From: Escherichia coli O157:H7
GTDB lineage: Bacteria; Pseudomonadota; Gammaproteobacteria; Enterobacterales; Enterobacteriaceae
Direction: 5' to 3' (one strand)
Length of the DNA: 64,000 nucleotides
Assembly: GCF_013167455.1 (NCBI RefSeq)
Contig: NZ_CP038328.1
Shown here: piece by piece, positions 41,885 to 44,244 of the stretch
Numbering within the stretch: position 1 is the first letter of the stretch
How the letters are laid out: every line of letters begins with the position of its first letter
The notes under the pieces: model-generated
Database searches by the model: none
The model's input: only the letters and a program-made list of their open reading frames with translations
What the model was told of the DNA's origin: nothing
Position numbers and translations under genes: made by a program

Positions 41885-42076
41885 CTACTTGGTCAACAGC
41901 AGCTTGCCAGCCTGAGTTTTACGGAGCAGATATTCTTGCCCGTCATGATCGATAATCAGTTTGCCATCCGGACCTAACAGTGTCTGGCTGGAAATTCGCC
42001 GAATAGGCTGCGGGGAAGCGGTCTTGTGATTGGCATCCGTTTCAGGCGTGAGTTTTCTGCTATCCGTATAACGCAT
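41885..42076 (-). CDS. hemP: HemP/HmuP-family small protein
   Basis: ORF-track frame 41885-42103; internal Met ([14 protein letters not shown]...) giving 63 aa; synonym ydiE; convergent with selO, only 3 bp between the two stops. Confidence 0.7.
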
Positions 42077-42207
42077 AAAAATTAATAATAATTGATATAA
42101 CAATGATTCTTATTATCAATATTATGGCTGACCAGAGCAAGCAGTAATGTGTTGAGAAGACAACAAGTTGCGCAGAAATGCCCATCCCATCAGGAATGGG
42201 CACGCAT

Positions 42208-43254
42208 TCAGAAGCGGGTATCTACCGCAGAGGCTAGTTTTTCGACCAGGCGTTCGGTATCTTCCCAGCCCAGACACGGGTCGGTAATGGATTGACCGTA
42301 AGTGAGCGGCTGACCGCCGACGATTTTTTGCGTTCCTTCGCGCAGGAAACTTTCCGCCATAATTCCAGCAATCGCCGTAGAGCCATTGCGGATTTGCTGA
42401 CAAATATCCTCACAAACTTCTAACTGGCGACGGTGCTGCTTCTGGCAGTTACCGTGGCTGAAATCCACCACCAGATGTTCAGGTAAATCAAACTCGTGCA
42501 GCGTATCGCAGGCTGCGGCGATATCATCGGCATGATAATTCGGTTTTTTGCCGCCACGCATAATAATGTGGCCATACGGGTTGCCGCTGGTCTGATAGAT
42601 GGTCATCTGACCATTTTTGTCTGGCGAGAGGAACATATGGCTGGCGCGGGCTGCGCGGATAGCATCCACAGCAATCCGCGTATTGCCATCGGTACCATTT
42701 TTAAAACCTACCGGACAGGAGAGTGCCGAAGCCATTTCACGGTGGATCTGACTTTCGGTAGTACGTGCGCCAATCGCGCCCCAACTGATTAAATCAGCAA
42801 TAAACTGACCGGTCACCATATCGAGGAACTCAGTCGCGGTTGGGACGCCCAGCTCATTTACCTGTAAAAGTAATTTGCGCGCCAGCTCCAGACCGTGATT
42901 TATCCGATAGCTGCCGTTTAAATCTGGATCGGAGATTAGTCCTTTCCAGCCGACAACAGTTCGTGGTTTTTCAAAATAGGTGCGCATTACGATTTCCAGC
43001 CGTGACTGGTACTGGTTGCGCAGCGACTGCAGACGGGTGGCGTACTCCATTGCAGCGGTGAGATCGTGGATCGAGCAGGGGCCAATAATGACCAACAGTC
43101 GCTTATCTTCACCATTGAGTATTTTTTCAATTCTGCGGCGGGAGTCGGTGACATGGGTGGCGACGCCAGGCGTTACGGGATACCGTAGCGCGAGTTCGGC
43201 GGGCGTTACCAGGCTCTCAATACGCGCAGTACGGAGTTCGTCAGTTCTGTTCAT
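42208..43254 (-). CDS. aroH: DAHP synthase, Trp-sensitive isozyme
   Basis: ORF-track frame 42208-43377; start placed at MNRTDELRTARIES giving 348 aa; TrpR operator upstream. Confidence 0.92.
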   Translation of the reverse strand: MNRTDELRTARIESLVTPAELALRYPVTPGVATHVTDSRRRIEKILNGEDKRLLVIIGPCSIHDLTAAMEYATRLQSLRNQYQSRLEIVMRTYFEKPRTVVGWKGLISDPDLNGSYRINHGLELARKLLLQVNELGVPTATEFLDMVTGQFIADLISWGAIGARTTESQIHREMASALSCPVGFKNGTDGNTRIAVDAIRAARASHMFLSPDKNGQMTIYQTSGNPYGHIIMRGGKKPNYHADDIAAACDTLHEFDLPEHLVVDFSHGNCQKQHRRQLEVCEDICQQIRNGSTAIAGIMAESFLREGTQKIVGGQPLTYGQSITDPCLGWEDTERLVEKLASAVDTRF

Positions 43255-43399
43255 TACAAGTCTCAGAAATTTGTTGCTTCTACGGCAGGACTGCCGGGAA
43301 GTGATGCGCATCACGATAAACCAATCGCTGCTGATTTCAAGTGCGAGGTGTGTCACACCTCGCCGGGTGGTTAGCATGATAACAAAAAAATAAGCTAAT

Positions 43400-43417
43400 G
43401 CACTAGTTCTCTAGTAC
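43400..43417 (-). promoter_or_regulatory. TrpR operator of aroH
   Basis: Minus-strand GTACTAGAGAACTAGTGC is a near-perfect match to the trp-operator palindrome GTACTAGTT/AACTAGTAC; it overlaps the last codons and stop of ppsR. Confidence 0.65.
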
Positions 43418-44244
43418 ATTCGGCGACTAAGGCCCATGATATCGAGGATCTTGGTGGCAATCTCTTCTACCGAATAATTGGTACTGTTAATCCACGGGAT
43501 CTGATTTTTACGGTACAAGGCTTCCACTTCCGCGACTTCCATCCTGCACTGACGAAGCGAGGCATAGCGACTGTTCTCCCGACGTTCCTCGCGAATCGCC
43601 GCCAGACGTTCCGGGTCGATAGTCAGGCCGAACAATTTATGCTGAAGCGGTTTGAGCGACGCGGGTAGCACCAGATTATCCATATCGTCGGCAATAAAGG
43701 GGTAGTTTGCCGCGCGGATACCAAATTGCATTGCCAGATACAGACTGGTGGGGGTTTTACCACAGCGAGAAACACCGAGCAGGATCACCTGAGCCTGATC
43801 CAGATTGCGCAACGAAATGCCGTCATCGTGGGCGAGGGTGTAATCAATCGCCGCAATGCGCGCATCATATTTATTGAGATTATTAGGGTTAAGGCCATGG
43901 GTACGATGAGCAATCGGCGTTGGATCCAGTTTCATCTCTTGTTGTAGCGGGGCAACCAGCGCCTGAACGATATCCTGGCAAAAACCTTCACTTTGCAAGA
44001 TGATGGCGCGAATTTCCGGCAACACGATGGAGTAGAAGACCAGCGGACGCACGCCTGTCTGGTGATAAATTGCGTCAATCTGATCCTTCACTGCCCGTGC
44101 ACGGCTCTCATTTTCGACAAACGGCAGCGTGATGCTGCTGATAGTGACGGGAAATTGTGACATTACTGCGTGTCCTAATACCTCCGCAGTTATTGCCGTA
44201 CCATCAGAAATATAAAAAACGTGGCGATCAACAGCATTATCCAT
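43411..44244 (-). CDS. ppsR: PEP synthase regulatory protein (bifunctional kinase/pyrophosphorylase)
   Basis: 277-aa ORF with P-loop (GVSRCGKT); divergent from ppsA; synonym ydiA. Confidence 0.9.

Follow-up and report, generated by a model that had tools for sequence, protein, structure and literature searches.

The Escherichia coli gene aroH belongs to the trp regulon, in which TrpR operators lie at trpEDCBA, trpR, aroH, aroL, and mtr, and it is usually described as being controlled by TrpR alone. Grove and Gunsalus reportedly described in 1987 the binding of TrpR–tryptophan at aroH and the repression of the gene, and Hudson et al. are said to have described in 1991 two tandem aroH promoters, P1 and P2, one of them regulated and the other constitutive. 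The locus analysed here is of the same type. Its TrpR site is the aroH operator itself and shows no difference from the site known from the regulon. Its promoters follow the P1/P2 tandem arrangement, with an upstream repressor-controlled promoter (aroHp1, p1) and a downstream promoter (aroHp2, p2), which are approximately 65–67 bp apart and both direct transcription into aroH.

Literature or databases already contain the operator and its overlap with ppsR, as well as the two promoters and a CRP peak at this locus. Between the promoters there is, in addition, a perfect palindrome, which lies outside the main aroH mRNA, fronts the conserved and dominant promoter p2, and coincides with one of two strong CRP-type sites. 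We consider it probable, while keeping real reservations, that aroH is served by two promoters and two regulatory inputs, and that the palindrome is a composite of a CRP site and an older, GC-rich stem-loop. Positions throughout are those of the window, that is, the whole 64-kb stretch of DNA that was analysed, and the features are collected in Table 1.

Table 1. Features of the ppsR–aroH region, with positions in the window
Feature	Position	Strand	Basis or remark
ppsR CDS, 277 aa	43411..44244	-	ORF list; ppsR annotation in matching E. coli genomes
aroH CDS, 348 aa; true start MNRTDEL at 43254	42208..43254	-	
TrpR operator of aroH, GTACTAGAGAACTAGTGC	43417..43400	-	over the aroHp1 -35 region and the ppsR Tyr and stop codons
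aroHp1 extended -10, TG-T-TATCAT	43384..43376	-	read from sequence; poor -35, where the operator sits
Palindrome, perfect 10+1+10, GCGAGGTGTG-A-CACACCTCGC	43343..43363	-	central T on the + strand (GCGAGGTGTG-T-CACACCTCGC)
CRP-type site 2, TGCGAGGTGTGTCACA, TGCGA-GGTGTG-TCACA	43342..43357	+	centre 43349.5 = -44.5 of p2, ~+22 of p1; inside the palindrome
aroHp2 -35 hexamer, TTGAAA	43340..43335	-	promoter scan; 2 nt downstream of the palindrome
aroHp2 -10 hexamer, TATCGT	43318..43313	-	promoter scan and conservation
CRP-type site 1, CGTGATGCGCATCACT / AGTGATGCGCATCACG	43300..43315		centre -2.5 of p2; overlaps p2 -10 and start
aroHp2 transcription start (A), 51-nt leader	43305	-	two genome-wide maps and guide table
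Small stem-loop, +5 to +29 of p2 mRNA, CUUC-C-CGGCA-GUCC-UGCCG-UA-GAAG	43277..43301	-	folding

The ppsR–aroH interval and its TrpR operator

Across the aroH control region, the window does not differ from E. coli K-12 MG1655, and the region is part of the E. coli core genome. The genes ppsR and aroH are separated by an intergenic region of 156 bp; ydiE lies further downstream on the minus strand, and ppsA is divergent, on the plus strand. The compactness of this intergenic region accounts for the overlap between the operator and the ppsR stop codon. Specifically, the 3' end of ppsR reads ATG TAC TAG (43419..43411), and both the Tyr codon and the stop codon fall within the operator.

On the plus strand of the window, positions 43400–43417 read GCACTAGTTCTCTAGTAC, which is GTACTAGAGAACTAGTGC when read on the minus strand. 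The operator is a palindrome with two CTAG cores and has three mismatches to the symmetric TrpR consensus GTACTAGTTAACTAGTAC. When up to three mismatches to this consensus were allowed, the operator was the sole match in the window, and matches were obtained in none of 100 shuffles. An earlier note on this DNA had claimed that the end of ppsR, comprising its last codons and stop, shares bases with the TrpR operator of aroH, and the unique consensus match with the Tyr and stop codons inside it bears this out. Both the operator and the overlap are textbook knowledge, and there is nothing new in them.

Relative to the back-calculated p1 start, the operator extends from about -47/-45 to -30/-28. 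In most Enterobacteriaceae, it is located 64–70 bp upstream of the p2 -35 hexamer, and in two Cedecea-like genomes this distance is 81 bp. The left half of the operator, GTACTA, also supplies the Tyr and stop codons of ppsR; in most species without the operator, ppsR ends in Phe-stop. The hairpin formed by the operator, together with a run of seven T residues (T7), was flagged by the terminator scan and was rejected as a terminator, since its stem is AU-rich, the T-run follows 6 nt later, and no 3' end is mapped to it.

Two promoters and a palindrome between them

Both aroHp1 and aroHp2 were used as catalogued promoters in a CRISPRa study (bioRxiv 10.1101/2022.07.14.500123). The guides listed at -70 and -91 in its Table S3 allowed the p1 start to be back-calculated to approximately 43370–43372, and the same procedure placed the p2 start at 43305–43306; guides on the two strands differ by 1–2 nt, and the p1 start rests on such catalogued positions. 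No direct genome-wide evidence for the p1 start was found in published start maps.

For p2, Kim et al. 2012 (PMC3415461) list a single aroH transcription start site, at 1786408 (NC_000913.2), which is supported by 414 reads and gives a leader of 51 nt. The promoter string given in that paper (PMC3415461) ends in ...GTGATGCGCA, and the p2 start is therefore position 43305 of the window. The cells were grown in M9 glucose without tryptophan, and starts with at least 50% of the strongest signal were listed, which for aroH was p2 only (Kim et al. 2012, PMC3415461). As p2 alone passed the 50% cut-off, p1 is a minor start even in the absence of tryptophan. The dRNA-seq data of Romero et al. 2014 (PMC4681348, Table S2) give the same p2 coordinate, where an overlap with RegulonDB is flagged, and aroH does not appear among the entries listed from the TSS tables of Ettwiller 2016 and Mendoza-Vargas 2009. 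Promoter p2 is thus the dominant aroH promoter in wild-type cells.

These starts fix the position of the palindrome, which corresponds to about +8/+10 to +28/+30 of p1 RNA and to -38 to -58 of p2. The earlier note had placed the palindrome in the aroH 5' leader and had raised the question of where transcription starts relative to it. A leader position holds for p1 transcripts, the back-calculated start of which is upstream of the palindrome, but not for p2 transcripts, which begin at the only start in two maps; most aroH mRNA therefore starts downstream of the palindrome.

The age of the two promoters differs. A total of 80 aroH loci from representative genomes were compared, and the p2 layout, comprising a -35 hexamer TTGAAA or TTGAAT, a 16-bp spacer, a -10 hexamer, and a leader of approximately 50 nt, was found in about 45 Enterobacterales. 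Examples include Yersinia, Serratia, Rahnella, Erwinia, Hafnia, Proteus, and Providencia. Among the same 80 loci, the TrpR operator and p1 occur in Enterobacteriaceae only, plus Hafnia and Edwardsiella at another spacing. This distribution of the operator agrees with a comparative study in which TrpR control of aroH was confined to close relatives of E. coli. Because p2 is widespread and the operator and p1 are narrowly distributed, p2 is regarded as the ancestral promoter, and p1 with its operator as an add-on at the end of ppsR.

The p2 leader itself contains a small stem-loop (Table 1), the inner stem of which is conserved, with weak covariation in the form of double changes in two of four pairs. 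A 389-aa ORF that extends aroH upstream was dismissed as a mechanical artefact, its ATG being located in the p1 -10 element, upstream of both starts. Through the leader there is a single open frame, which continues in frame into aroH.

The perfect 10-bp inverted repeat that had been noticed at 43343–43363 was confirmed in the sequence. Perfect 10-bp inverted repeats with a loop of 0–8 nt gave 12 matches at eight distinct loci in the window; the mean over 30 dinucleotide shuffles was 0.83, so that such repeats are expected to be about ten times rarer than was observed. Most of the other inverted-repeat loci in the window resemble terminators or REP elements. A 35-bp stretch that contains the palindrome is the same in 5365 of 5422 complete E. 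coli genomes, and common E. coli polymorphisms flank the palindrome on both sides (43329, 43293, and 43391–43399). Invariance over 35 bp within E. coli is mild evidence of constraint.

CRP-type sites over p2 and within the palindrome

A high-confidence CRP ChIP-seq peak at aroH was reported for ETEC H10407 by Haycocks et al. 2015 (PMC4287617 Table 1), and the same table gives two MEME-predicted CRP sites under this peak, AGTGATGCGCATCACG and TGCGAGGTGTGTCACA. CRP occupies the aroH region in vivo. The resolution of the peak cannot separate sites 1 and 2, which are 42 bp apart, and we infer that site 2 is probably occupied as well. The spacing of 42 bp between the site centres corresponds to four helical turns.

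To score the sites, a CRP weight matrix derived from the other 105 ChIP-seq sites of the PMC4287617 table was used, with the aroH sites excluded; the sites used for training had a median of 12.8 bits. Site 1 ranked first with 14.8 bits and site 2 third with 12.9 bits among the 63,985 positions of the window. The two 16-mers agree with TGTGA-N6-TCACA at 8/10 and 9/10 half-site positions. Cra, PdhR, TyrR, and the LacI family were considered as binders of the dyads and were dropped, as none of them matched.

The dyad GTGATGCGCATCAC covers the p2 -10 hexamer and start, and its core is the CRP consensus core GTGAT-N4-ATCAC. In several genera, this dyad recurs at the place that the palindrome takes in E. 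coli. The dyad over p2 is conserved out to Proteus and Yersinia, and site 1 scores 13–17 bits at the same position in approximately 40 Enterobacterales. A CRP dyad over an ancestral promoter in about 40 Enterobacterales, combined with CRP occupancy, suggests a carbon-status input to aroH. At -2.5 of p2, site 1 overlaps the core promoter and is placed as a repressing site would be. Site 2, at -44.5 of p2 and approximately +22 of p1, matches no canonical activation position (-41.5 or -61.5). No published effect of CRP on aroH expression was found in the literature search.

Site 2 comprises one arm of the palindrome, its centre, and four bases of the other arm (16 of 21 bases), and the two symmetry axes differ, being 43349.5 for the CRP site and 43353 for the palindrome. 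Positions 43358–43363 are outside the CRP 16-mer and yet perfectly complementary to 43343–43348; therefore, CRP does not explain the whole palindrome. That the symmetry would reach 6 bp past the 16-mer about another axis has a chance of approximately 1 in 4096. The idea of a protein-binding palindrome, also raised in the earlier note, accordingly gains support in part: the repeat contains the predicted CRP site TGCGAGGTGTGTCACA of the ChIP-seq table, but this site takes up only 16 of the 21 bases and has an axis of its own.

Site 2 is shared by E. coli, the sister lineage L001, and the Citrobacter-like contig L190. A CRP dyad of 16–18 bits, centred at -50.5, takes the slot of the palindrome in Pluralibacter, ESNIH1-like, and ENT03 genomes. 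No CRP-like site was found within the stem in E. albertii, Enterobacter, Lelliottia, or L194, and the slot is likewise without a site beyond the family.

The stem-loop in other genera and its possible role

As RNA, the palindrome folds with a free energy of -14.2 kcal/mol (z = -5.06), and none of 200 shuffles was as stable. A stable RNA hairpin, as had been proposed earlier, can thus form, and compensatory changes in other genera speak for it as well. The folded RNA is a GC-rich stem-loop with nine pairs and a 3-nt loop (10 bp as a DNA dyad), and it lies 48 nt beyond the ppsR stop codon. In the p1 leader, it is the single dominant hairpin and is present in both the MFE and the centroid folds.

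A metagenome scan with the query TTGAAANNNNNNNDGATTGGTTTA yielded 120 loci, nine of which were true aroH contexts; Salmonella and Klebsiella were not recovered. One of the contigs, L190, encodes an AroH that is 96% identical to that of Citrobacter youngae, and it carries the same 21 nt as the E. coli palindrome. Between L190 and E. coli, the 12 nt that separate the p1 -10 element from the palindrome are almost unrelated, and the operator and the p2 -10 hexamer also differ. The stem of L194, which represents another genus, is GCAGGGCG-GATAA-CGCCCTGC, and that of Enterobacter and Lelliottia is (T)CGGGGCG-loop-CGCCCCG(A). All 3' arms stop exactly 2 nt before the p2 -35 hexamer TTGAAA.

In a structure-blind MAFFT alignment, the stems of E. 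coli, L190, L194, Enterobacter, and Lelliottia are in register. Pairing was found in 90.5% of the alignment cells, compared to 36–52% when the partners were slid. Five of nine pairs are altered on both sides, and the covariation score was reached by none of 500 shuffles; this covariation rests on three to four independent lineages, and template switching at quasi-palindromes can give paired changes without selection. G·U pairs are ambiguous with respect to the RNA strand, since some positions that do not pair on the aroH strand would be G·U when read on the opposite one. Base for base, the bottom six pairs of the E. coli stem can be matched to those of Enterobacter and L194, with paired substitutions at three pairs. 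On this alignment, these six pairs are homologous to a stem that other lineages form without any half-site for CRP; the TGTGA/TCACA half-site sits at the top of the E. coli stem.

The free energy of the stem lies between -13 and -16.8 kcal/mol in E. coli, L001, L194, Enterobacter, and Lelliottia; where other genera have only the CRP dyad, this would make a poor hairpin (-3 to -4 kcal/mol). In L001, the substitution G43364T extends the stem to 11 bp. Both the stem (-6.3 kcal/mol, z = 0.03) and the CRP site have disappeared from E. albertii, which retains an intact p1, p2, and operator, and in Citrobacter youngae the 3' arm is deleted along with the p2 -35 hexamer. Due to these losses, the element must be considered dispensable in some lineages.

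Strong stems at the same position, kept by compensatory change in lineages without CRP half-sites, raise the question of whether the palindrome is purely an RNA stem-loop. It might act in the early p1 leader on elongation, stability, or translation, or serve as a 3' structure of ppsR read-through RNA, in which case its likeness to a CRP site would be incidental and the ChIP signal would come entirely from site 1. The presence of the stem in both the MFE and the centroid folds of the p1 leader, its lengthening to 11 bp by G43364T in L001, and the inability of ChIP-seq to resolve sites 42 bp apart are all in line with this. We nevertheless find it rather doubtful. A match that, with 12.9 bits, equals the median score of genuine sites, ranks third in the 64 kb, and lies 42 bp from the top-ranking one is unlikely to be an accident, and several genera have a better CRP dyad in the slot together with a poor hairpin (-3 to -4 kcal/mol). 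Furthermore, most aroH mRNA starts downstream and is without the palindrome, and the stem has neither a mapped 3' end among the PMC7815308 entries listed nor an Rfam family.

The opposite view, in which the palindrome is only a CRP site, treats the extra symmetry as a by-product, for example of a one-step template switch, and the stems of Enterobacter and L194 as unrelated insertions. It would be hard to reconcile with the 21/21 nt, including six outside the 16-mer, that E. coli and L190 share next to 12 diverged nucleotides, with the base-for-base match of the bottom six pairs to the Enterobacter and L194 stems and its paired substitutions at three pairs, or with the fact that every 3' arm ends 2 nt before the p2 -35 hexamer. 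We hold this view to be unlikely, even though it draws on the published CRP peak and site call and on the matrix score, E. albertii and C. youngae manage without the stem, and the covariation comes from few independent lineages. That the palindrome is a chance feature without function is highly improbable. Chance alone would give approximately 0.8 perfect 10-bp inverted repeats in 64 kb, but this one is fixed in E. coli, identical in another genus (L190), and overlaps a ChIP-supported CRP site, and its orthologous stems covary.

Several described classes of RNA element were compared with the stem. An Rfam scan of 42900–43800 with E-values up to 10 gave no relevant match and one spurious microRNA match elsewhere. 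Hairpins that protect the 5' end, such as that of ompA, must begin within a few nucleotides of this end, which is sensed by RNase E and RppH. A role of this type was ruled out by the 7–9 unpaired nucleotides ahead of the stem in p1 RNA. A trp-type attenuator was rejected, as there is no separate short leader ORF, no terminator, and a single dominant hairpin. Control of the leader by the sRNA GcvB was excluded by a 2025 study, in which aroH was not regulated by GcvB. A canonical intrinsic terminator found no support either: no U-run is present in the tail ACUUGAAAUC, and the terminator scan, for which at least 5 T in 8 are required, called only the operator hairpin. Among the entries listed in the supplementary tables of PMC7815308, there is no RNA 3' end at 17882xx–17883xx, and neighbouring positions are present.

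In Serratia, Erwinia, Pantoea, and Yersinia thracica, which have no operator and no p1, an obvious terminator hairpin separates ppsR from the conserved aroH promoter. As species without the operator and p1 have one here, the interval was probably occupied by a terminator in the ancestor, and a GC-rich stem of 9–10 bp, 48 nt past the ppsR stop, could accordingly be a weak intrinsic terminator or insulator that ends ppsR transcription and limits read-through, including that from p1, into p2. For the E. coli stem, this seems improbable to us. Its tail ACUUGAAAUC has no U-run and was not called by the scan, no 3' end at 17882xx–17883xx is found among the PMC7815308 entries listed, control of aroH by TrpR requires p1 transcripts to read through the stem, and genera with only a CRP dyad in the slot have no stem.

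Our preferred reading remains that of a CRP site superimposed on an older stem-loop, with two promoters and two inputs. TrpR with tryptophan would block p1, which is the classical tryptophan input, and p2 would give basal expression independent of TrpR. CRP–cAMP would bind over the p2 core and probably at the palindrome too. Its likeliest effect would be repression, in which site 1 would occlude p2; site 2 may either cooperate with site 1 on the same face of the helix or hinder polymerase arriving from p1. The full 10-bp dyad would represent an older stem-loop that was kept by compensatory substitutions in several Enterobacteriaceae, with or without CRP half-sites. RNA that carries such a stem would have to come from p1 or from ppsR read-through, and the ancestry of the stem is plausibly a ppsR terminator hairpin, as in species without p1. 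As to its role, our guess is that it acts on upstream-derived transcripts ahead of p2, as a modest barrier or as a 3'-end structure. A more specific version, which is possible and which we offer tentatively, is that the stem is a functional insulator at the RNA or DNA level, kept by compensatory evolution, the top of which was co-opted as a CRP half-site in Escherichia and Citrobacter, with cAMP–CRP as a second input to aroH.

If CRP acts in this way, cAMP–CRP would make the tryptophan-sensitive entry step of aromatic biosynthesis responsive to carbon status, and a carbon-status input of this kind would be relevant to the engineering of the shikimate pathway. The compensatory evolution of the stem, for its part, may offer a small, clean case for the role of a hairpin between tandem promoters.

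Compared to known systems, the locus adds to the P1/P2 system of Hudson et al. 1991 that p2 is conserved over Enterobacterales, and that only a few others besides Enterobacteriaceae have p1 and the operator. With intrinsic terminators and REP-like stem-loops, the aroH stem shares the form of a short, GC-rich, perfect intergenic stem past a stop codon, the sequence of which drifts while pairing is kept. It differs from them in that it is without a U-tract, a 3' end mapped among the PMC7815308 entries listed, or likeness to the REP consensus, and it is located inside a unit that requires read-through. With known CRP–cAMP sites at two-site or core-overlapping promoters, aroH has in common two consensus 16-mers under a ChIP-seq peak; unlike them, site 2 of aroH sits off-axis in a longer palindrome that CRP does not need.

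Leader stem-loop and CRP-type dyad of p2

Across the Enterobacterales, the small stem-loop at the head of the mRNA from p2, the downstream promoter of aroH, is conserved mostly in sequence, with a few compensatory changes. Compensatory pairs are UGGCA/UGCCA in E. albertii, CGGU/ACCG in Shimwellia, and GGGUA/UACCC in Proteus, and a common E. coli polymorphism in the stem-loop, C43293T, retains a G·U pair. The p2 spacer is also polymorphic, as E. coli is split approximately 40:60 between A and T at one position; A is the rarer allele and is the one present in both the window and K-12, and the substitution has no obvious consequence.

A predicted CRP-type dyad lies over p2. It scores 13-17 bits in approximately 40 Enterobacterales, including Yersinia, Serratia, Proteus, Providencia, and Hafnia, and is carried at the equivalent position by the aroH loci L001-L050 and L079 from other genomes. 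A published CRP ChIP-seq peak covers the dyad, and a literature search turned up no work on how the dyad affects aroH expression.

Features of the aroH region in window coordinates
Feature	Position	Description
ydiE	41885-42130	directly downstream of aroH
aroH, mechanical ORF list	42208-43377	41 codons longer
p2 leader stem-loop	43277-43301	CUUC-C-CGGCA-GUCC-UGCCG-UA-GAAG; starts at +5 of p2 mRNA
CRP-type dyad, predicted	43300-43315	GTGAT-N4-ATCAC; centre at -2.5 of p2
p2 spacer polymorphism	43329	A/T
Equivalent of E. albertii slot	43343-43375	
Operator palindrome and T7 run	43397-43420	AGCTTATTTTTTT
ppsR end, operator left half	43411-43419	GTACTA

The operator and the gene boundaries

The left half of the TrpR operator also serves as the final sense codon (Tyr) and stop codon of the upstream gene, ppsR. 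Since PpsR ends in Met-Phe-stop (ATG TTC TAA/TGA) in most operator-less species (L023-L031 and others), a single Phe-to-Tyr codon change may have helped to create this half-site. By consensus scan, the operator palindrome and the T7 run after it are terminator-like, with 10 pairs, only 3 of them G-C. They could act as a weak ppsR terminator, but the T-run lies 6 nt away from the stem and there is no mapped 3' end at this position.

The longer aroH in the mechanical ORF list is open through the entire leader without a stop. This 41-codon N-terminal extension is not real, because transcription from both promoters starts downstream of its ATG, which falls within the p1 -10. For ydiE, a separate start is mapped at 1787609 in NC_000913.2 (184 reads, 28-nt leader), and a genomic SELEX study lists the spacer between aroH and ydiE as bound by H-NS and as containing a constitutive promoter.

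Divergence between p1 and p2

In Escherichia albertii (L002), the 35 bp from the p1 -10 to the p2 -35 are only approximately 51% identical to E. coli, whereas the flanks are approximately 95% identical, and both the palindromic stem and the CRP-type site of this interval are lost. This pattern suggests replacement or rapid turnover restricted to the segment. Citrobacter youngae (L039, about 1400-1500) has a deletion of approximately 45 bp from the palindrome centre to the p2 -10 (...GAGTGTGA/TATTGTGATG...), which removes the 3' arm of the palindrome and the p2 -35. Apparently p1 is the sole promoter left in this species, unlike in a Citrobacter-like metagenome contig (L190), where the arrangement is intact.
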